From the IMG/VR virus record IMGVR_UViG_3300010165_000001, positions 76,165 through 140,164 of that record: a DNA stretch of 64,000 nt, one strand, 5' to 3'. This DNA comes from a virus. This document shows, piece by piece, positions 33,742 to 61,806 of this stretch (positions are counted from its first letter, which is position 1; every line of letters starts with the position of its first letter). The notes beneath the pieces are model-generated. The model did not search any database. It was not told the origin of the DNA and worked only from the letters and a program-made list of their open reading frames with translations. A program made the translations under genes and the position numbers.

Positions 33742-33776
33742 AAAAAAATAAGGTAGTGGATTTTAACCACCACCTT
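33742..33776 (-). terminator. terminator-like hairpin/attenuator between chaperone and tape measure genes
   Basis: AAGGTAGTGG/CCACCACCTT stem with one mismatch, then T7 on the minus strand. Confidence 0.4.
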
Positions 33777-34405
33777 TAAATATCGAAGAAATCATCTGTC
33801 TCTTCTTCTGTACCATTAAATAAGCTTATTGCACTTTCTAAATCATCTTTAGTCATATCTTCTGGAACTGTTGTAGAAGGTTTTTCTTCTTTAATTTTTC
33901 CATTGTTTACTTCATCATCAAGTTCTTCTAATTGTTTATTAATATGTTCTCTAATTTCATCTTGATGGTTTTGTTTAATCATTTCTTGTTCTTCTTCTGA
34001 ATAATCATCAGCCTTAATACGTTCTGCTTTCTTACGTCTTTCTGTTTCAGAAAGTAAAGCATCTACTTGTTTAGCTAAATCATCTTCATCATGGTCTTCA
34101 CGTAATGGGTCAAACGTTTCAGAATCTTCGTTCCACCATGAATCATCATCATCTTCAACTGTATTTTTAAGTCCTTTAGCCATTCTTTGTTGTTCTTTCA
34201 TATCCATTTCCATATTAGCAAATATGTACTCTATTTGGTCAGGGGATAGATTTTGGAATCTTTCATCTGTAGGTAGTACTTGGAACTTTTCCATAATTCT
34301 CCACATATTACGACCATAGTTATTCTTCGCAACATGCTTCATACCTCCTAATTCTTGTATATCTCTTCTAGTAACGAAAGGTTGATTGAAATTCCATCCA
34401 ATCAT
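33776..34405 (-). CDS. acidic tail assembly chaperone-like protein (209 aa)
   Basis: Between tail tube and tape measure; overlaps the upstream ORF by 38 nt in another frame; no Shine-Dalgarno before its ATG. Confidence 0.55.
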   Translation of the reverse strand: MIGWNFNQPFVTRRDIQELGGMKHVAKNNYGRNMWRIMEKFQVLPTDERFQNLSPDQIEYIFANMEMDMKEQQRMAKGLKNTVEDDDDSWWNEDSETFDPLREDHDEDDLAKQVDALLSETERRKKAERIKADDYSEEEQEMIKQNHQDEIREHINKQLEELDDEVNNGKIKEEKPSTTVPEDMTKDDLESAISLFNGTEEETDDFFDI

Positions 34406-34913
34406 TATACATTTGAATTAATGGGGCAGGGTTATACACATCTTCCTCATTCTTGAAATACTTAGGAACTTCATCACCTACAACTTGTATTGTAGCTAAC
34501 ATTTCAAAAGCATAATAAATATATGCTGGTTGGTCTACATCCGTACCTCCAAGGTATTTGGAGCGTAGAGCATTAATTTGACCTTGTTCAATCATGTTAG
34601 GTAAGTGTAATTTAATTGTGAATGTTAAACCTAACTCTCTAAAGTCATAGTGTTTAATGAATGAATCATTATACCCTCTTATAACCTTATCCAATACTTT
34701 TTGTTTCTCTTGTTCTTGTTTGTATTTGATTTCTTCTATTTCTTCTTTAGTCATTTCAGAAACAGGTTTTTGTTTTTCTTCTTTTTCTTTAGAATCCTCT
34801 TCTTTAGATTCTTCTTTTTTATCTTCTGTTTCTTTAGTATCTTTTTTATATTTTAATTCATCTATCTCTTCTTCGGTCATTTCAGATAAATCTTTTTTAG
34901 TTTCTTCAGCCAT
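34368..34913 (-). CDS. tail assembly chaperone-like protein (181 aa)
   Basis: First gene after the tail tube; Glu/Lys-rich N-terminus with duplicated EMT(E/K)EEI(D/E)E(L/I)KYK segments. Confidence 0.55.
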   Translation of the reverse strand: MAEETKKDLSEMTEEEIDELKYKKDTKETEDKKEESKEEDSKEKEEKQKPVSEMTKEEIEEIKYKQEQEKQKVLDKVIRGYNDSFIKHYDFRELGLTFTIKLHLPNMIEQGQINALRSKYLGGTDVDQPAYIYYAFEMLATIQVVGDEVPKYFKNEEDVYNPAPLIQMYNDWMEFQSTFRY

Positions 34914-35045: not shown

Positions 35046-35076
35046 AAAAAAAAGACCTAGAAATTAATCTAGGTCT
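35046..35076 (-). terminator. rho-independent terminator after the tail tube gene
   Basis: AGACCTAGA/TCTAGGTCT stem plus T8 on the minus strand, 17 nt after the reconstructed stop at 35093. Confidence 0.8.
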
Positions 35077-35092
35077 AAAATATTCTAAAATA

Positions 35093-36098
35093 TTATGAGG
35101 CTTTATCTGATGCTGTAAGATAAGAAACAATTTTGTTACGAATAGAATCGTTATTTCTATCCTTCTATATGTTTCCATATAGTTCAGACTATATCATCAC
35201 CTTAAAATTGAAGGTGTCTCCCATTTCCAATCACTTGATTGTACGTCCGCAGACTAGTCGTTGCACGTTCTCTTGTTTTAAGAGCTTCGCTCATGATTGC
35301 CCTCAACATTACTTGTTAGGGGTTTCCATGAATTAGAGAGATTTGCTATAACCATTTCTGATTATAGGAGCTTTTTACCTACTCAATACTTTCTGTAATC
35401 ATTTCATTGGTATTAATTTCTTCGTCCAATATCTTCATACAAGGTCGTTAATCTTGTACAGTTCTCTAATGAACTTCTCTATGTTTCCATAGATGATGAG
35501 ACTATATCACAATCCTATAAGGATTCTTTTCTTTTCCATTTAACAAGGGTTTATTTGGTAATTACCCAACACCTTGACCACTTGGTTGTACACTTACTCC
35601 CTTTGAATAATCAATTAGGTTTCTGTTAGTCGTTTGGCATTTATGATTCTAGGAATCAATTTAGCACAGGATTGCCATATACTTAATGTACTTAGGTTTC
35701 CCTGTTTAGAAAAGTTTTTCGATAAGGATTACTCCTTAAAGCTACAACTTATTATAGTTATTTGCGCTGCAACCATGATAAGCTATGATTACACTCTTAG
35801 TTAAGTTATCTACAACTAAAATGTCGATAACATCTTTTTTAAGGATTTCTTCACCTAAAGAAGCATATCCTAATTTTGCGAAGTTTTCTTTTTTCATTCG
35901 TAATCTTTCTATCGTCACTGTACCTTCATATCTAAGGTAAACGTGTTCTTGTGGCATGATAGAACCAATTTCATATACGCCCTCAGTACCGTATTCACGT
36001 GTACCTGAAGCTGATTGAGCTCTGCCTACAATTTTACCCTTAATCATTAGATAGACGGTATTACCAGTGTGAATACTTTGTTTAGCTTCACTTGCCAT
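35093..36098 (-). CDS. tail tube protein (Twort orf142 homologue), three exons: 36098-35751, 35426-35381, 35127-35093
   Basis: The exons join in frame to exactly 142 aa (...SANNYN/DEEINTNEMITESIE/FSYLTASDKAS). Both 5' exons end in U and both introns end in G. The gene is immediately downstream of the sheath gene. Confidence 0.8.
35128..35380 (-). ncRNA. group I intron 2 of the tail tube gene (253 nt, no ORF)
   Basis: Segment by segment it resembles the crystallised Twort orf142-I2 ribozyme as I recall it: GGAAACCCCUAAC, GGGCAAUCAUGAGCGAAGCUCUUA, GUGCAACGACUAGUC, GAUAUAGUCUGAAC, CGUAACAAAAUUG with terminal G. Confidence 0.8.
35427..35750 (-). ncRNA. group I intron 1 of the tail tube gene (324 nt, no ORF)
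   Basis: P1 pairing: exon CUAUAAU with intron GUUGUAG. Core strings GGAAACCUAAG, GGCAAUCCUGUGCUAAAUU, AAAUGCCAAACGACUAA and GUGAUAUAGUCU match the Twort orf142 intron family. Confidence 0.75.
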
Positions 36099-36167: not shown

Positions 36168-37937
36168 TTAGGCTTGTAATTGTTGTTCTTTATAAACCAA
36201 TGATACAGTAATTTTTTTCAATGTTCTGATTGGGAATACTGTCATTGAGATACGTGCTTCTTTACCTTCAATAATAACTTGTACGTCTTCTGGTGTGAAA
36301 TCTTGGATTTCATGGTCACGTTTTTTACGTTCAAGATAAGACTGAATAAAGTCTTTGATAATTGAAGGACTTGTTTCTGTTGTTCTAGTACCGATGAAGT
36401 TATCATCAAGTAAGATTTTAAGTTCAGAACTTAAGAAGTCGTTTTCTTCACCAATTGCCATTTCAGATTTAACAGGGTCTCTTGTATCATTGTATGTTGT
36501 AACGTCATCTACAATACGGAAACGAGTGTTTAATCTGTCACGAACGAATTCGATAGATACAACACCGTTTTCGTTTAATTGGTCTAAGTCTGAGGATTCA
36601 TAAACTTGGTCTAATGAATTAATACGGAAGTTCTTGAATGTGATTGACTCACCAATATCTAGTCCACTTACTAAACCACCAATAGCTGCTGCTACCATAT
36701 ATGCAGGTACATGGTTTCTACGTCCATCTCCCATCATAAATGTACCAGAGTTAGCTATAAGCGTAACACGTGGATTTACTAGAGCTGAAGCACGACCAAT
36801 TAATTGTTCTTTTGCTTCATTAAACCCTGCACCAACAATAGCTCTCATTGGTTCTCCTGCATCTGAACGTGAAGTTACAAAATGTGCAACCTCTGCGTGT
36901 ACAGATTGTCTAGAACTTAGTGGTACAATGTAGTATCCACCTTCATGAGCAAATTTATCTAATTTTTCTGACCAAGTGCTTGGAGGTGTTCCATTTGTTC
37001 CGCCTTGTAAGTTAGATAATTCAAATGGTTCAATGTCTTGTACAGATACAGTACTTCCTGCTGATACTTCAGCACTACTTTCACCTGCTTCTACACTTAC
37101 ATCGCTTGGAGAATCTTGTTGTCCTTCTGTACGTTCAATTGATATTGCTTGGTCATATTTTGTTTGATTTAAAATATCACCGAAGATTGCTGTTACATAA
37201 ACCCCATCTTCAACTTTAATATCTACATCTTTAGCTTCATCTAAATACTTAGTTTCTAAGTCTTTATTTCCGAATGGTGATAATGTAGCTTTAAAGCTTG
37301 GTAAGTTGTTTACGTCTTTAATGATGTCATTCGTATATTCATATACACCTTCACCTAGTGCATAGTTTCTTACTTCTGAACCATCTTCACTTAAGATTAG
37401 GTTTGTAGCTTCACCAGTTTCTTTATTATGTTTAACTGTATAAGTACCTTGACCTTCTCCTGTATATTCTAATTTGAAGATATTACCAATATTATCGTAA
37501 GTGTTACGAATACGGTCTTTATCAAAGATAACTTTCAAACGGTAAGAATCTGTGATAGTGTTTTCTTCTAAAGCAACTTGAATGTCATTAGAGTCTACAC
37601 CATAGATTTTAGATTTAAAAGTTAATCCACCTTTAGTTAGTGTTGCAGGTTCTGCATCTTCAATACGCATTGCTAAAATAGTTCCTGCTGTAAATTGTGG
37701 GTTTGTAGTCCATGCTAAGTGAATAGCATCTACTAATTCTCCTGAACGGAAAATTTGTTCAGCTTGTGAATAATTTCGTAATTCATATACTGTGTTAGGT
37801 TCCCCACCTTCAGCTTGTCCAATTAAGCAAAGAATCTTCTCACTTGAACTTGCTGAACCACCAATACCTGACGTATCTACATTTATTTCTGTATGTGGAC
37901 GGGTGATAGGGATTCTTGGAAATACACTTTCAGCCAT
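36168..37937 (-). CDS. tail sheath protein (589 aa)
   Basis: PITRPH..I.VDTSGIGGSA.SSEK..CLIGQAEGGEPNTVYELRNYSQA and the C-terminal ISMTV(F/Y)PIR...SLVYK.Q.LQA closely match the phage K sheath sequence as I remember it. Confidence 0.9.
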   Translation of the reverse strand: MAESVFPRIPITRPHTEINVDTSGIGGSASSSEKILCLIGQAEGGEPNTVYELRNYSQAEQIFRSGELVDAIHLAWTTNPQFTAGTILAMRIEDAEPATLTKGGLTFKSKIYGVDSNDIQVALEENTITDSYRLKVIFDKDRIRNTYDNIGNIFKLEYTGEGQGTYTVKHNKETGEATNLILSEDGSEVRNYALGEGVYEYTNDIIKDVNNLPSFKATLSPFGNKDLETKYLDEAKDVDIKVEDGVYVTAIFGDILNQTKYDQAISIERTEGQQDSPSDVSVEAGESSAEVSAGSTVSVQDIEPFELSNLQGGTNGTPPSTWSEKLDKFAHEGGYYIVPLSSRQSVHAEVAHFVTSRSDAGEPMRAIVGAGFNEAKEQLIGRASALVNPRVTLIANSGTFMMGDGRRNHVPAYMVAAAIGGLVSGLDIGESITFKNFRINSLDQVYESSDLDQLNENGVVSIEFVRDRLNTRFRIVDDVTTYNDTRDPVKSEMAIGEENDFLSSELKILLDDNFIGTRTTETSPSIIKDFIQSYLERKKRDHEIQDFTPEDVQVIIEGKEARISMTVFPIRTLKKITVSLVYKEQQLQA

Positions 37938-46803: not shown

Positions 46804-49569
46804 TTATTTAATTGAACCCCAAAGCTTTCCTAAGCCTTGATTTGGAGGAGCTACGCCATTCCATGTACGTATAGGAAGATAATATCTTTTCCCTTTCCAA
46901 GTATAACCTACCCACACTAAAAAATCTTGCAACATAACTTCATCATAATCACAGTAACCTCCTGGTTGGAAGTTATAAGCTACTGGACAACTTCTAAATG
47001 GACCAGTTGTTCTAACTACAATAGGTTGATTACCATTAGTAAATCTAGCTTTCTCACTCATATACCACGTACCATAACTATTACGTTTCCATTTTCCTGC
47101 TACAGTTGATTTAGTATTACTTGCAGAACCTGTTTTATTAGATACAGTAGCTGTTGGTACTTTACCTGCTTGATAAGCTCTGATTTGCTTGATGAAATAA
47201 TCTTTAAGTTTAAGTTGTATTGCTTTTGAAGGTACGCCTTGTGTCACAGGGTCGAAACCAGTGTGTAGTTTCATACTTCTGTGAGGGCAGCTAGTCTGTG
47301 AAAATTCCATATGGAGTCTCACTGTATTACGGTTGGCTTTTAACCCCCACTTATTTAATAAACGTGCAGTTTCTTGAAATGCTGCTTGTTCATTTGCTAG
47401 GAATACTTTATCACTTGCACCAATAGATTGACATATCTCTATACCATAATAATTTTTATTACCATTTTGGTTAGCTGTATGCCATGCTATACGACTTTCT
47501 GGTAGTGCTTGATATACTGTATTACCACTGATATATGAATGAGCTACACCTGCTTCTAATCGAGATAAAGGTGCATTTACTAATCCATTATGATACGCTT
47601 CTGCTGTTGCACCTACACTACCCGCATCATTGTGTAGAACAATGCCTTTAGGTGTATATCCACGATTAGGTAAACGATAACCTTTTACTTCATCACGAAT
47701 ATAAGTTAGTTTTTTAGCTTTTTTCTTAGCTGTTGATTTTTTAGTTGTTGTTTTTTTAGTTGTTGTTTTTTTAGTTGTTGTTTTTTTACTTGGAGTTTTC
47801 GTTTTTGCCTCTTCTTTGTAATATGGTCTAATGAACCATTGAGGAAAATCGTATGTGTGTGTTACTCTTGTTGCTGCTTCCCAACCTGTTCCTCCTTTAG
47901 CTGAACCGCTTGTCCAACCTCCGCCTTGCCAATTCTGGTCAAGACTTACAAACTTCATTAAGTTTCCGTCAGCATTTCCATTTAAAACTATAGATACGTG
48001 ACCATACCCGCCACCGTAGGATGAGTTAAAAATTGCCAAGTCACCTGGTTTAGCTTTAAATGAAGATGTATTATTATATACCTTAGCTATACCTTTAAAA
48101 TTATTTGAGTTAGGTATGTCTTTTGCTCCTACACCTTTAAGACTTAAACCAAATAATTTATTCCAATATTCGTTAGCTAGGTCAAAACACTGGTACCCGT
48201 ACCCGATATGTTTACTAAGAACCCTTTCCATTTATATATTTCTATATAAACTTGTATAAATTCATAGTGATTATTAATTAATCCTTATAGGTTTCCTATA
48301 AGACCAGACTATATCATTATATAGGTTAAATAAATTTAAAAGTATACTTTTTTCCCTCTATGTTTTTACAGAATTCCCTTTTTCCTTCTGCTACTTCTTT
48401 AATATGACTTAGTGTAGCTATATTTAAAGACCTTTTTACCTCAGCCATAGATTTATATTCTTTATTTGTCTCAAAACAATAAAATTTAAGTGTTCCTCTA
48501 CCATCTTTATAATACTTATCATATATATTATACCTTTTTGCTAAAGTTATTACATAACCTAGGTCTACATTATATTTTTTAGATATTTGAAAAGCATTTA
48601 TACCTTTTTTGTAATCTTCTAGTATTTTCAATATATTCATATCTTTACCTTCTATTATAAGTTCTAGTATACTTTCTTTTCTTTTTCATCTATCGAAGGT
48701 AAAATACTCTCTTTTATTGAATCCTCTATATATTTAAAATAACTTTTAGAACAATCGAGTTCAACTAATTTTATATTATTTTCTTCACAATACTGTCTTT
48801 TTTCTTCATCAGATTGTTTAGTATTTTTATAAGAATCTACCCAATTAGAACTAATATTATTTGTATAATGTTGTTCACCATGTGTTTCGATTGCTATGTT
48901 TAGTTTTGGTAAATAAAAATCTATAAATCTATTTTTATTGTGAAGTTTATATTGATGTTCAAATTCTATATCTTTAGTCTTTAAATAAGAATATATAAAT
49001 CTTTCAGGGTAGCTCATGTAGTCTTTACAGTAAGGACAAGAAAAACCATTATTATATAAGTTATGTGCCCGAACCTTCTTTTCATATTTACAAATAGGAC
49101 ATACACAATCTATATACCTATCACTACCTCTACTGTAGTATTTTGCATCATTTTTATTTTTAAAATATTTTAATAAATGTGTTTCATTATAGAGGGAATT
49201 TTCTTTTTTTTACTCTTATGTTTTCACCTTTAAATTTCATTTTACATTTCTCCTATATACTCATCACTGTCCGTCAATTGACGATACTTAGTCGTTGAAC
49301 CTTATTCTTCTTTCACTATATCATGAGAATAAATTAATGTCAATAGTTAATCCAAAGAATCTTGGCTGCTGATTGCCTAATCCTTAGTATTTTTGAACTA
49401 TCACGCTTACCGTTACCAGTTACGTTGTAGTTACTAAGGCTCTAAAGGGTTCCCAGCAATTCAATGAGTTTTACATGGACTCGTAAGTTAATCCATCAAA
49501 ATCTATTTTCTTACCTTCTAAACTTTTGACAAATGCTACTGCTTCTTTTTCTGTGAGTTTTGCAACCAT
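46804..49569 (-). CDS. endolysin (CHAP, amidase_2, SH3b), two exons: 49569-49491 and 48203-46804
   Basis: Exon 1 ([26 protein letters not shown]) starts 1 nt after the holin stop. Splicing gives [23 protein letters not shown], parallel to the phi11-type lysin N-terminus as I recall it. Amidase (HNDAGS...) and SH3_5-like C-terminus follow; predicted length 492 aa. Confidence 0.8.
48326..49240 (-). pseudogene. zinc-finger plus Vsr/PD-(D/E)XK-like homing endonuclease gene broken into three reading frames
   Basis: ATG at 49240 after GGAGA. The frame is lost in an A8 run (49204-49211) and resumes through CPICK...CPYCK into ORF 48664-49017 (DFYLP...IETHGEQH). A stop follows, then ORF 48326-48640 (HTH plus C-terminal DNA-binding module) in a third frame. 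Confidence 0.65.
49315..49343 (-). promoter_or_regulatory. SigA-type promoter inside the lysin intron, upstream of the endonuclease gene
   Basis: On the minus strand: TTGACA (49343-49338), 17 nt, TATAGT (49320-49315), in the shared context ctATTGACATTa. Confidence 0.65.
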
Positions 49570-57244: not shown

Positions 57245-60200
57245 ATGAAAATGGATGGAAAACAATTAAAAGACTTACTCATATCCACATATGGAACTAC
57301 AAATGTTACCCAAGAACAATTAGATTATGTATTAACAATGTCTAGTACTACTGCTTATATGTTGAAACACAATTTAATACGTGGTCATAATATTACTTTT
57401 TCTATACCAAATAGAGATAAAAGTAAAGCTCAAGCTCATAGACCATAAATTTGCTGTGGTCTTTAAACTCTTCTTAAAATTGGAAACTCCTAACGTAAAG
57501 ACGAGGACAATCAATTGCTAAATTGACTTAATAAGTCATAAATGCCTAGAGACTAAAATTACTGGTAAGCTCATAAATGGTTGAGTGTAGAACAGTATAA
57601 GAAAGCTCTTTTTAAGAGAAGTAACAGAAGAGGGTTACTTACCTAAGAAAGTAACTATGAGATAGTCCAAACCCTTTAAATACTAGGAAACTAGGGGTAT
57701 AAAACGGGCAGATTGCCATAATAAATGATAAACACCCTAACATAGCAGTACTTAAATCGAGACAACTTGGATAAAAATTTGTTCAAGTAAAACCTTGTTA
57801 AACAGGGAAACTCCTAACAAGTAAAGTTGAGGACAATCCTGTGCTAAATTCAGTTACTAACTGATAAATGCCGAACGACTAAAATTACTGGTAAGCTCAT
57901 AAATGGTTGAGTGTAGAACAGTATAAAAGATTAATTTCGTAAAGCAAGGGGTTGTATAAACCGTAATTAAAATTATCTTTATACAATCAAGATATAGTCT
58001 AGTCCGTATATAAATATCACGAAAGTGACGGTATAAACGTAAGTGAAGTTGGATACAATAAGATGTTGCATTTTGCAGATACGCATAGTAAAGATTCGGT
58101 CAAGTGTATGTTCACCTTCAAGTAATTAGGGGAGGCTTTATACAGTAATGTATATCGAATAACTCTACTAAAATTGGAAACTCCTAACATGTAATGATGA
58201 GGACAATCAATTGCTAAATTCAGTTTAAACTGATAAATGCCTAACGACTAATCTTCTAGGTAAATATTCAAAAGGGAATATTGAGAACTAGATAAAAGGA
58301 TATTTAATCCGTAACGTAGAGAGTCCTTAACCAAAAATAAGGATTATGATATAGTCTACTCCGACTTTTAATTAAGTGTTAAAATACTAGGAAACTAGCG
58401 GTATACCCTAGACCCGACCAGTGACCAAATGCAGAAATTCGTACAAAGTAGGATAAATCCTACATTGCAACAACCTTATTTTGCAAGCATCATTAACCAA
58501 GATAATGACTCATTAAAATATAAACAAATAAGAAATTCAAGTATGTTCTTTAGAACAAGTTCTACACCTAAAGCTTTAGAGGGTGTTGATATTGATTACC
58601 TTTCCCTAATGTCTGGGGCTTTATACAGTAATGTATATCGAACAACCTTACTAAAATTGGAAACTCTAAACAGGTAAAGCTGTAGACAATCAATTGCTAA
58701 ATTGACTTAATAAGTCATAAATGCCTAACGACTAAGTTTACTAATAGTTATCTAAATGGAGATAATGAGAATAGTATAAGAAAACCTTTAATAGGAAGTA
58801 ACGTAAGGAATCCTTAACCAAAACTAAGGATTATAAGATAGTCTAATCCCTTTAAATACTAGGAAACTAGGGGTAAAAAACTTTAGAGACGAGTATGATA
58901 GAGTACCTTCATCATCAGAATCATCAGCAATGGAATCAATGTCAAGTTCACCTTTCAAGGTTATAAGACGGTGGTCAACACCAACCACACCAAATATGGG
59001 AATTCATAAACTCTATATGCAATCTGACCAATGGTATTATGGTCATAGATGTACACATTGTGATTACTTAAATGAAATGAGTTATGAAGACTATGACCCA
59101 GATAACTTAGAGAAGAGTGGAAATATCCTATTAGTCAATCCTGAAGGTGTTGACGAAATGGCTAAAACAGTGCAAGAAGGAAGTTACCAATTTGTTTGTC
59201 AAAAATGTGGTAAACTTCTAGATAGATGGTATAACGGAGAATGGCATAGTAAGTTTAGTGAAAGAACTAAAGGTGGAAAAGGAACAAGAGGTTATTTTAT
59301 TTCGCAGCTTAATGCTGTGTGGATAAGTGCTTCAGAACTCAAAGAAAAAGAAATGAACACTGAATCAACGCAATTATTTTATAACTATACATTGGGTTAG
59401 AGGAATAGCCCCTTTATACAGTAATGTATATCGAATAACTCTACTAAAATTGGGAACCCCTAACAGATAATGCTGAGGGCAATCAATTGCTAAATATTTA
59501 TTTTAACTATTGACATTACCTAAATAATGATATATAATTAAGATAGATTAAATGCCTAACGACTAAGTTTATAGGTAACTTACTAAATGAAGTAAGGTAG
59601 AACTATAAGAGAAGGTTAACGACCTGTAAAGTAGAGATTCCTTAGTCAAAATTAAGGAATATGATATAGTCTAGTCCGTATATAAATATCACGAAAGTGA
59701 CGGTAGTAACGTTTCCATACGAAGACCAGAAAATGAAAGTATTACAAGAAGATATTTACAACAATCAATCTCCTATTGCTAAGAAACAAATGTTTGATAG
59801 GGGAGATTATAAATTTATCGCAGCATCAGTGGATTGGGGTAATACTCACTGGTGTACTGTACATGGAATGACTGAAGATGGTAAGATAGACCTCATTAGA
59901 TTATTTAATGTTAAACGAAATAAAAACCCTAACATGGTTGAATCGGATATAGAAAAAATACGTGTAGAATTTTCTAAATATAACCCAGATATTATTGTAG
60001 CAGATACAGGAGACTCAGGAAACAACTTACTAAGACTCCAACAATACTTCGGTGAAGATATTGTGTTTGGTTGTACTTACAAATCATCTCCTAAATCTAC
60101 TGGACAAATTAAACCTGTGTTTAACGAGAATTCAAATATTGTTACTGTAGATAAATTGATGCAGAACAAAATTTATATCCAAGATTTAAAAACAGGTAGA

Positions 60201-61806
60201 ATAAGAATTTACCAAGAAAATGATAATGATAAAGCTATACTTCTTAAACATTGGCAAAATGTGGTCATCAGAGATGAAGAAGATAGCAAGACAGAAGAAA
60301 TGTATCAAGTAATCAAGAGAAAAGGTGACGATTTTTTAACACAATGGTCGTCAATAAACAGTGTTAAACGGGCGTAGTAAAATAATGTATAGATAAACAA
60401 TATACTGGTAAGAAACCCTAAACCTGACTATACACAGACAGTGGGAACCTACCGTGCTAAATTTTTAATTTAATTATTGACATTATATTTTTTTAATGTT
60501 ATTATTAAATTAGGATAAAAGCCTAACGACTAAATTTCTAGGTAGGTGTCTAAATGGAGACACTGAGAACTAGATAAAAGACTAAAACAATACAACCCAA
60601 AACAGGAGGTGAACAATAACAAATGACAGCTTTTAATACGGAATGGTTTTTAAATAGAATAAAAGAGGTAAGACCTAACGATTATCATGAATATGAGTTT
60701 TTAACTCCATACACTAAGTCAAGGGAGCCTATGAAAGCTAAACATATACCTTGTGGAAATATTGTAGATATGATACCTAACTCTTTTATAAGTAGAAACT
60801 CATCGTGCCCTATATGCAGTAGAAAATCTTCAACTGAAAAACAAAGAAAGACTCAAAAAGATTTTGAAGCATGGCTTCCTGAAGGTGTTATAAATATGGA
60901 AAAATATAAAGGTATGAATAAAGAAATAACATTTCATTGTTTCTTTTGTGATAGCACCTATAAAGTAAAACCAAGTAACTTAAGGGGTAGCGGTGGAGAA
61001 GGTACTAGATGTTCTAGATGTTCCAATAGATATAATAGAACTATAAAAGAGGTTGAAGATGAAATAAGAATAGAAACTAATGGTAAATACTCTCTAGTAT
61101 CTAAAAAGTATAAAAATGCTAACACTCCTATAGAAGTAAAACACCACGAATGTGGTAAAACTTATATGGTTTCTATGCACAACTTTAGAAAAGGTAGAAG
61201 ATGCCCTCATTGTAATTTGTCTATAGGTGAACAACTTGTAATAAATATATTACAAAAGAACGAAATACCTTATGAAGGTCAGAAAACATTTAAAGACTTA
61301 AGAAAAATAAATAACCTATCTTATGATTTCTATTTACCTGAATATAATGTTCTTATTGAGTATCAAGGAGAACAACACTTTAAACCCATTAAACATTTCG
61401 GAGGTCAAAAATCTTTTGAAGTACAAAAGGAAATAGATAATATAAAAAGGAATTATGCTTATGATAATGGATATAATCTTATAGAAATTCCATACACTTT
61501 AAGAGACCAAGAAGATATTTCCAAATTTTTATTTAAGGAATTAAAAGAAGTGTTTTAGTCGTAACACACTGAATTACTAACCAAAAATAGTAATTATGAT
61601 ATAGTCTAAACCCACTACTCTAAAAGTAGTGTTAAAGTATTACGAAAGTAAGGGTAATATTGCATTATAGTCAAGCAAGTATATATGCGAGAATTGGTCT
61701 ATCACGTCTAGAAGACTTGTACATTAAAAATAATGAAAATGAATTTGATTCTGTATTTATTAATACAAGTTATGAAGACAATAACGAATTCTTTTTAGAT
61801 GATTAA
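57245..61806 (+). CDS. terL: terminase large subunit, seven exons: 57245-57446, 57707-57772, 58040-58117, 58412-58607, 58887-59397, 59712-60332, 61663-61806
   Basis: The exons sum to 1818 nt, giving 605 aa in one frame. Splicing restores LKSRQLG/LSEVG (Walker A-like), IDYLSL/DEYD (Walker B) and RKGDD/HYSQASIYA (nuclease motif). Every 5' exon ends in U and every intron ends in G. Confidence 0.85.
57447..57706 (+). ncRNA. terL group I intron 1 (260 nt, no ORF)
   Basis: P1 pairing: exon AGACCAU with intron GUGGUCU (7 bp, U.G at the splice site). Core GGAAACUCCUAAC, GAGGACAAUCAAUUGCUAAAUU, AAAUGCCUAGAGACUAA. 3' hairpin CUAGGAAACUAG, then GGGUAUAAAACG. Confidence 0.8.
57773..58039 (+). ncRNA. terL group I intron 2 (267 nt, no ORF), splits the Walker A codons
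   Basis: P1 pairing: exon CUUGGAU with intron GUUCAAG (7 bp). Core GGGAAACUCCUAAC, AAAUGCCGAACGACUAA, GAUAUAGUCUAGUCC. Ends ...GACGGUAUAAACG. Confidence 0.8.
58118..58411 (+). ncRNA. terL group I intron 3 (294 nt, no ORF)
   Basis: P1 pairing: exon CCU with intron GGG. P2 module CUUUAUACAGUAAUGUAUAUCGAA is identical to the start of the Twort orf142-I2 ribozyme as I recall it. Core AAAUGCCUAACGACUAA, AUGAUAUAGUCUAC. Ends ...CCCUAG. Confidence 0.75.
58608..58886 (+). ncRNA. terL group I intron 4 (279 nt, no ORF), splits the Walker B codons
   Basis: P1 pairing: exon CCCU with intron GGGG. Same P2 module and the same core strings. Ends ...AACUUUAG. Confidence 0.75.
59398..59711 (+). ncRNA. terL group I intron 5 (314 nt, no ORF but with an internal consensus promoter)
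   Basis: P1 pairing: exon GGGU with intron (A)GCCC. Same P2 module. Its 3' 43 nt are identical to intron 2. Ends ...GACGGUAGUAACG. Confidence 0.75.
59510..59538 (+). promoter_or_regulatory. orphan consensus promoter inside ORF-less intron 5
   Basis: TTGACA (59510-59515), 17 nt, TATAAT (59533-59538), in the same ctATTGACATTa context as the endonuclease gene promoters. The intron core (AAAUGCCUAACGACUA) resumes a few nucleotides downstream. Confidence 0.6.
60477..60505 (+). promoter_or_regulatory. promoter of the intron 6 endonuclease gene
   Basis: TTGACA (60477-60482), 17 nt, TATTAT (60500-60505). AGGAGGTGA precedes the ATG at 60623. Confidence 0.65.
60623..61558 (+). CDS. intron-encoded homing endonuclease-like protein: three zinc-finger modules plus a Vsr/PD-(D/E)XK-like nuclease domain (311 aa)
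   Basis: C..(x)..CPIC, CFFC...CSRC and ECG...CPHC fingers, followed by YDFYLPEYNVLIEYQGEQH, paralogous to 53516-54763 and 48664-49017. Confidence 0.7.
   Translation: MTAFNTEWFLNRIKEVRPNDYHEYEFLTPYTKSREPMKAKHIPCGNIVDMIPNSFISRNSSCPICSRKSSTEKQRKTQKDFEAWLPEGVINMEKYKGMNKEITFHCFFCDSTYKVKPSNLRGSGGEGTRCSRCSNRYNRTIKEVEDEIRIETNGKYSLVSKKYKNANTPIEVKHHECGKTYMVSMHNFRKGRRCPHCNLSIGEQLVINILQKNEIPYEGQKTFKDLRKINNLSYDFYLPEYNVLIEYQGEQHFKPIKHFGGQKSFEVQKEIDNIKRNYAYDNGYNLIEIPYTLRDQEDISKFLFKELKEVF

Follow-up and report, generated by a model that had tools for sequence, protein, structure and literature searches.

The DNA analysed here (the window) is a 64,000-nt stretch of a complete virus genome record of 140,164 bp with direct terminal repeats. 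Over the tail tube gene region, the window shows 98-99% identity to Staphylococcus phages phiSA_BS1 and BS2, which are classified in the Herelleviridae, Twortvirinae, Baoshanvirus. The source phage is a Staphylococcus myovirus of the same subfamily. The minus strand of the region carries the genes for the tail sheath (36168-37937; PHROG 279), the tail tube (36098 to 35093, introns included; PHROG 985, PDB 8q01, and Rfam RF00028), and a tail-assembly chaperone (34368-34913; PHROG 1038). The tube gene is thus located between the sheath and chaperone genes, where a Herelleviridae tail tube protein is expected to be encoded. A Pfam search of the tube, sheath, and chaperone ORFs gave no match, and PHROGs matched all three. 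The tube gene starts with an ATG at 36098, about 10 nt downstream of a GGAG motif, and is followed by a hairpin resembling an intrinsic terminator (35053..35076, minus strand; 9-bp stem, 6-nt loop, then a T-run), in line with the original prediction of a terminator after the gene. Two terminator-like sites were found in the region compared to 0.4 expected in shuffled sequences. On the 3' side of the tube gene, two overlapping ORFs (33776-34913, minus strand) share a single 350-position chaperone profile, PHROG 4988, with the first ORF covering positions 6-138 and the second covering positions 128-314. This split is consistent with a frameshift fusion product.

The ORF at 35742-36098 (minus strand) encodes 118 aa. 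It matches positions 1-117 of PHROG 985, a virion structural protein profile of 141 positions (E = 8.9e-64), and, likewise over residues 1-117, the tail tube protein of phage 812 (E = 9e-67), a 142-aa protein whose structure is solved in PDB 8q01 and ten other PDB entries. Because the match is limited to the first 117 positions, the ORF corresponds to a tube gene that lacks about 25 C-terminal codons. These matches agree with the earlier proposal of a split tail tube gene homologous to Twort orf142. Beyond the ORF lies an ORF-poor gap of 640 nt on the same strand, with no credible ORF. A tblastn search with the intron-less S24 tube protein located two further exons. Exon 1 (35754..36098, minus strand) comprises 345 nt and codons 1-115, ends in ...SANNY, and is supported by the matches to PHROG 985 and 8q01 and by the phiSA_BS1 alignment. 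Exon 2 (35381..35426, minus strand) is the 46-nt micro-exon that had been predicted and encodes DEEINTNEMITESIE plus the first base of a Phe codon. Exon 3 (35093..35127, minus strand) comprises 35 nt including the TAA stop and encodes (F)SYLTASDKAS. In phiSA_BS1, exon 2 follows exon 1 without a gap, and in JDF86 it also runs directly into exon 3.

The spliced coding sequence of 345 + 46 + 35 = 426 nt encodes 141 aa, reading …SANNY-DEEINTNEMITESIE-FSYLTASDKAS with hyphens at the exon joints, and its C-terminus is ...SANNYDEEINTNEMITESIEFSYLTASDKAS. This protein matches the spliced phiSA_BS1 protein at every residue and that of JDF86 at all residues but 1, and its last 31 residues align without gaps to residues 111-140 of the 812 protein (8q01). 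After excision, the reading frame is therefore again collinear with that of intron-less homologues, as expected of group I introns. We consider it very likely that two ORF-less group I introns are excised by joining 35754 to 35426 and 35381 to 35127, and that the product is a 141-aa tube protein.

Both introns matched RF00028 over the full span of model positions 1-253, at 35763-35477 (minus strand; 75.2 bits, E = 2.8e-17) and 35397-35165 (minus strand; 96.4 bits, E = 1.3e-23), compared to a gathering score of 50. The gap therefore contains two minus-strand ribozyme cores, as had been noticed from the sequence. A search inside both introns found no credible ORF. The sole sense-strand ORF of at least 30 aa, a 35-aa ORF in intron 2, has no PHROG match, and the description of both introns as ORF-less was upheld.

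Intron 1 (35427..35753, minus strand; 327 nt) starts with AAUAAGUUGUAG and ends with AUAUUG, the last base being the G at 35427. In its P1 helix, exon CUAU pairs with the guide GUAG, with a U.G pair at the splice site (CUAU-AAUAAGUU-GUAG) and an AA/UU extension around a 4-nt loop. An in-frame TAG at 35744-35742 ends unspliced translation at 118 aa. The phiSA_BS1 sequence aligns to 36300-35754 (99.1%) and then continues unbroken to 35426-34900 (97.0%). Because phiSA_BS1 runs directly from 35754 to 35426, intron 1 occupies exactly 35753..35427. JDF86, which is without introns at both sites, reads ...AACTAC GAT... across the intron 1 site. Intron 1 is 80% identical to intron 1 (I1) of Twort and 82% identical to I1 of phage 110, both located at the same site. 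In an RNAalifold analysis of this family (3 sequences), 26 of the 88 predicted pairs show compensatory changes. Copies of intron 1 that are about 71-74% identical over about 87-91% of its length are present in the nrdE (ribonucleotide reductase large subunit) genes of other Twortvirinae, including JDF86, SapYZU04, and PM56, and similar copies with 67-69% identity are present in Vibrio phages. These copies imply that this ribozyme family is common to unrelated genes and hosts.

The original prediction had placed the first junction 3 nt away, such that intron 1 was removed between 35751 and 35426 to give a 142-aa protein reading ...NNYNDEE.... The joined frame is open in this arrangement, the exon still ends in U, and 142 aa is the length of Twort orf142. 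However, the arrangement keeps an extra AAT codon, and both phiSA_BS1 and JDF86 pass directly from NNY to DEE with no extra Asn. Moreover, the 142-aa protein has a one-residue insertion compared to the solved 812 protein, to which the 141-aa protein aligns without a gap. For a 35751 site, the P1 helix (AUAAU with GUUGU) would enclose a loop of 2 nt, a sterically impossible arrangement. The orthologues of intron 1 in Twort and phage 110 retain the CUAU/GUAG pairing and continue after the splice site with G, instead of AAU. In Twort, the length of 142 aa is due to a C-terminal Arg, not to a residue at the position of the 35751 junction, and the agreement with that length does not derive from the sequence. 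We regard a junction at 35751 as highly improbable. The ending FSYLTASDKAS that was proposed for the protein stood, and the proposed length of 142 aa did not.

A main 3' splice site 9 nt upstream (…UUGUAUG-AAGAUAUUG), which would add the residues KIL, had also been proposed and appears, if anything, even less probable. This position is occupied by a G, and the alignment shows a G at its equivalents in Twort and phage 110. Nevertheless, the three extra codons occur in no intron-less allele, the G in question is part of a 3'-terminal helix that is predicted at columns 301-323 and shows compensatory changes, and both the annotation and the 142-aa length of the Twort protein require the distal G. 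Minor cryptic use of this upstream site may occur. For the main product, we retain the joint of 35754 to 35426.

Intron 2 (35128..35380, minus strand; 253 nt) starts with AGGUAAAAAGCUC and ends with AAAAUUG, the last base being the G at 35128. Its P1 helix is formed by exon GAGU and the guide GCUC (GAGU-AGGUAAAAA-GCUC). A TAG directly after the splice site would terminate translation at 130 aa if intron 1 alone were removed, and this 130-aa product with intron 2 retained is exactly the ORF annotated in phiSA_BS1. JDF86 is empty at this site and reads ...ATTGAGT-TTTCTTAT, or, over a longer stretch, ...ATTGAGT-TTTCTTATC.... Because JDF86 is continuous here, intron 2 occupies exactly 35380..35128. 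The second junction, 35381 to 35127, had been placed exactly in the original prediction, as judged by the phiSA_BS1 and JDF86 alignments. Intron 2 is 98% identical to its counterpart in phiSA_BS1, and 86%, 83%, and 80% identical to the second introns (I2) of phage 110, 812, and Twort, respectively. In the RNAalifold analysis of this family (8 sequences), 29 of 58 predicted pairs show compensatory changes.

In both introns, the 5' exon ends in a U that forms a U.G pair with the guide in P1, and this pairing is kept in the orthologues. Likewise, the last intron G is invariant in the alignments of both intron families. The flanking bases differ at each boundary, which leaves no room for it to slide. 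Both P1 helices are short (4 bp each, plus the 2-bp extension in intron 1), and the P10 pairings are weak (about 3 bp, by eye). The compensatory changes in both families, counted over all RNAalifold-predicted helices taken together, imply that the intron structures are under selection. In subgroup IA2, the phage-type group that includes the T4 and Twort introns, a P7.1/P7.2 extension lies between P7 and P3'. In the Rfam alignments, the stretch from GACUA to the P3 3' strand, where P7.1/P7.2 lie, contains an insert of 29 nt in intron 2 and of 91 nt in intron 1, and a weaker match covers the T4 nrdB intron. Twort I2 has been classed as IA2 (PMC10136302). Both introns probably belong to subgroup IA2, an assignment that rests on their orthology to the Twort introns.

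We propose that a late-operon sheath-tube transcript would carry the tube precursor with its two ORF-less group I introns, each of which would fold a ribozyme core and remove itself by two-step, guanosine-initiated transesterification. Intron 1 would be cut after the U of CUAU, paired with GUAG, and released after its terminal G at 35427. Likewise, intron 2 would be cut after the U of GAGU, paired with GCUC, and released after its terminal G at 35128. The exons would then be joined at 35754 to 35426 and 35381 to 35127 to form the 426-nt coding sequence for 141 aa. Since the unspliced RNA would give 118 aa and removal of intron 1 alone would give 130 aa, both splices would be needed for a functional tube. 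Moreover, the phage record is complete, which implies that the essential tube gene should be functional. From the sequence, we infer that both introns are spliced in infected cells. Exon skipping, in which exon 1 is joined to exon 3, was considered as an additional outcome and rejected, since it would shift the frame and give a 150-aa product with an unrelated tail, and nothing was found in its favour.

RNA evidence was sought in the Logan contigs of four public runs, among 24 runs listed. In public contigs from relatives, the sequence runs uninterrupted across both junctions, in agreement with the positions given above. In X12, a tick metatranscriptome and the only clear RNA library, a 437-nt contig joins exons 1, 2, and 3. 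This contig comes from a relative, with 95-99% identity and synonymous differences at the joints. The form without intron 1 was also present in a 10-kb, probably DNA, contig of run X1. Because intron-less DNA alleles exist, the X12 junctions confirm the positions of the joints, not splicing itself. The parts of the region that are uncovered in X1, X3, and X12 are uninformative. For the 141-aa protein, the predicted junction-spanning peptides are ...NNYDEEINTNEMITESIEFSYL... and ...SANNYDEEINTNEMITESIEFSYLTASDK....

The tube genes of five relatives are annotated in GenBank/RefSeq as truncated single ORFs, under names such as 'virion structural protein' and 'truncated capsid protein'. These ORFs lie at locus nt 503-895 in phiSA_BS1, 503-922 in JDF86, 1403-1741 in Golestan101, 1501-1839 in Stau2, and 1201-1569 in Twillingate, and all five can be read as spliced genes for about 141-142 aa. 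Such annotations would fit introns that are decayed relics without splicing, in a broken gene from which the 118-aa fragment alone is made. We consider this explanation very remote. The virus record is that of a complete genome, and a contractile tail cannot do without its tube protein. The second and third exons have remained in frame and encode the same residues as their counterparts in relatives. The ribozyme cores score far above threshold and carry compensatory substitutions, which argues that they are under selection. In addition, phage 812, reported with two non-coding introns in its tube gene, is viable and propagated (PMC6445280), and the 142-aa PDB chains of the 812 tube protein show that the full-length product of this family is present in virions. 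A functional tube gene from which both introns are removed thus remains the strongly preferred reading.

For annotation, this reading means that the tube genes of Baoshanvirus relatives are filed in GenBank as truncated ORFs (130, 139, and 112 aa), and that the corrected product for the window phage is a 141-aa protein from three exons. For phage-therapy genomics, it means that the gaps in these tube genes are ribozymes, not defects.

Two further Rfam matches in the window lie outside the tube gene. A third group I intron candidate at 59388-59693 (plus strand) was detected in a local search with a sub-threshold RF00028 score (30.3 bits, E = 1.9e-5). It splits the terminase large subunit gene between the ORFs 58930-59400 and 59697-60377, which cover positions 174-325 and 322-538 of the PHROG 675 profile, respectively. 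About 250 nt downstream of this split gene, the ORF 60623-61558 (plus strand) encodes an HNH/homing endonuclease (PHROG 559). The other match, to the Staphylococcus sRNA S808 (46985-47239, minus strand; 80.2 bits, gathering score 76), sits entirely within the endolysin gene 46804-48231 (PHROG 635, E = 3e-190), and an sRNA gene at this position is less likely than coding-sequence similarity to a phage lysin.

Across ten loci, the tube coding sequence is interrupted at eight sites within 82 nt. Naive spliced alignment of the DNA to the intron-less S24 coding sequence misplaced several junctions, which were corrected by hand according to three rules (U at -1, terminal G, and reading frame). In coordinates of the coding sequence, interruptions occur at nt 328 (Golestan101 and Stau2), nt 345 (window phage, Twort, and phage 110), about nt 355 (812 and PM28), nt 366 (Twillingate), nt 386 (Twort I2), nt 391 (window phage, phiSA_BS1, phage 110, and 812), nt 401 (Stau2), and nt 409 (Twort I3, JDF86, and Golestan101). 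The ribozymes resembling intron 2 fall into two lineages, in which the guide predicts the position. The GCUC lineage is found at GAGU, at nt 391 in the window phage, phiSA_BS1, phage 110, and 812, and the GUGC lineage is found at two GCAU sites, at nt 386 in Twort and at nt 409 in Twort, JDF86, and Golestan101. Twort I2 resembles the JDF86 intron at the I3 site more closely (86% identity) than Twort I3 does (76%).

These patterns tentatively suggest a hot spot for introns at the 3' end of the Twortvirinae tube gene, where related ORF-less ribozymes may move between nearby sites by change or re-use of their 4-nt guides, and RNA-guided reverse splicing would fit such movement better than endonuclease homing. 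We regard this idea as possible but doubtful, since guide-directed retargeting is deduced from few sequences. If it were true, the window phage would be one snapshot of this turnover, with sites 345 and 391 filled and site 409 empty.

Several other intervening sequences at these loci seem to be of a divergent type. An RF00028 search at E = 0.01 gave no match for either of the Stau2 interruptions, each about 300 nt long (locus nt about 1834-2135 and 2204-2501) or for the 337-nt one in Twillingate (locus nt about 1567-1903), and the Golestan101 sequence at nt 328 of the coding sequence (locus nt 1721-2015) scored only 34 bits. As in group I introns, the boundaries of all these sequences are marked by U and G.

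Introns in this gene have been described previously. Two non-coding introns in the tube gene have been published for kayviruses 812, 812h1, A3R, 676Z, Fi200W, and P4W, together with the loss of tube-gene introns in host-range mutants (PMC6445280), and the distribution of introns in the Twortvirinae has been called well documented (PMC11878797). In GenBank, phage 110 and PM28 each carry two Intron_gpI features annotated at the tube-gene position. Homologues covering at least 80% of the query were found in 93 phage records for intron 1 and in 112 for intron 2. Four records hold most of the region, and three of them are sepunaviruses. The pair of sites in the window phage (345 and 391) was not found in any listed Baoshanvirus record, and a literature search returned no paper linking Baoshanvirus with introns. 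We conclude that the two-intron arrangement in the tube gene is already known and that the window phage adds another combination of sites. No new mechanism is implied by these introns. Instead, they extend a known patchwork, in which introns of a small structural gene are present in some phages and absent from others, and this patchwork could be a natural system in which to study the spread of ORF-less group I introns.

Comparison with Twort defines what is shared and what differs at this locus. Parsing of the Twort locus (AF132670) by the same rules gave a 142-aa protein encoded by exons of 345, 41, 23, and 20 nt, which are separated by introns of 325, 252, and 286 nt. The original prediction that the Twort gene has three introns was correct, as its coding sequence is joined from 4 pieces and contains three RF00028 matches. 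As in the window phage, all of the Twort introns are ORF-less. Twort I1 shares with intron 1 both its site (after ...AAC UAU, codon 115) and the CUAU/GUAG P1, and the two introns are similar in length (325 compared to 327 nt) and 80% identical. Intron 2 had been described as nearly collinear with Twort I2, the crystallised Twort ribozyme. Collinearity was confirmed (253 compared to 252 nt); however, intron 2 is inserted 5 nt downstream, at nt 391 of the coding sequence compared to 386 in Twort, and uses a different guide (GCUC with GAGU, compared to GUGC with GCAU). The middle exon is 46 nt in the window phage and 41 nt in Twort, and the tube proteins are 141 and 142 aa long. Twort has three introns, whereas the window phage has two, and the Twort I3 site (ACAGCAU-CAG, with the hyphen at the splice site) is empty in the window phage. 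As presented in PMC10136302, citing Landthaler & Shub 1999, the exon between Twort I2 and I3 is 23 nt, as found here, and both exon-skipping and exon-inclusion products were reported for the I2/I3 pair. Since introns 1 and 2 of the window phage are only 58% alike, skipping of the Twort type, which has been proposed for the near-identical I2 and I3, is less likely in the window phage.

The 812 tube gene likewise contains two ORF-less group I introns. Its second intron has the same GAGU site and GCUC guide as intron 2 and is 83% identical to it. By contrast, its first intron is a more divergent ribozyme that is located about 10 nt further downstream and has a GAGACAU/GUGUCUC P1. For this first 812 intron (locus nt 475-790), no pair of boundaries gives U at -1 (GAGACAU before the splice site) and a terminal G while keeping the product collinear with the PDB chain of 142 aa, which reads NETWQTNE. 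The 812 tube gene is listed as 426 nt, with '1 sub, 1 ins' after intron loss (PMC6445280), and wild-type 812 may make a 141-aa form of the tube protein. In 812, the next gene after that for the tube is annotated as a 'putative group I intron-encoded nuclease', whereas in the window phage the chaperone gene comes directly after the tube gene.

Among the Baoshanvirus relatives phiSA_BS1/BS2, JDF86, and Golestan101, the exons are 97-99% identical to those of the window phage, and the introns differ. phiSA_BS1/BS2 are without intron 1, and intron 2 of phiSA_BS1 is nearly the same as that of the window phage. JDF86 is without both of the window introns and instead has an intron of the Twort I2 type at the I3 site. 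Golestan101 has an intron of this type at the I3 site and another after GGU U (codon 110). Thus, the differences between phiSA_BS1, JDF86, and Twort bear out the original prediction that the intron content of the tube gene varies between relatives.
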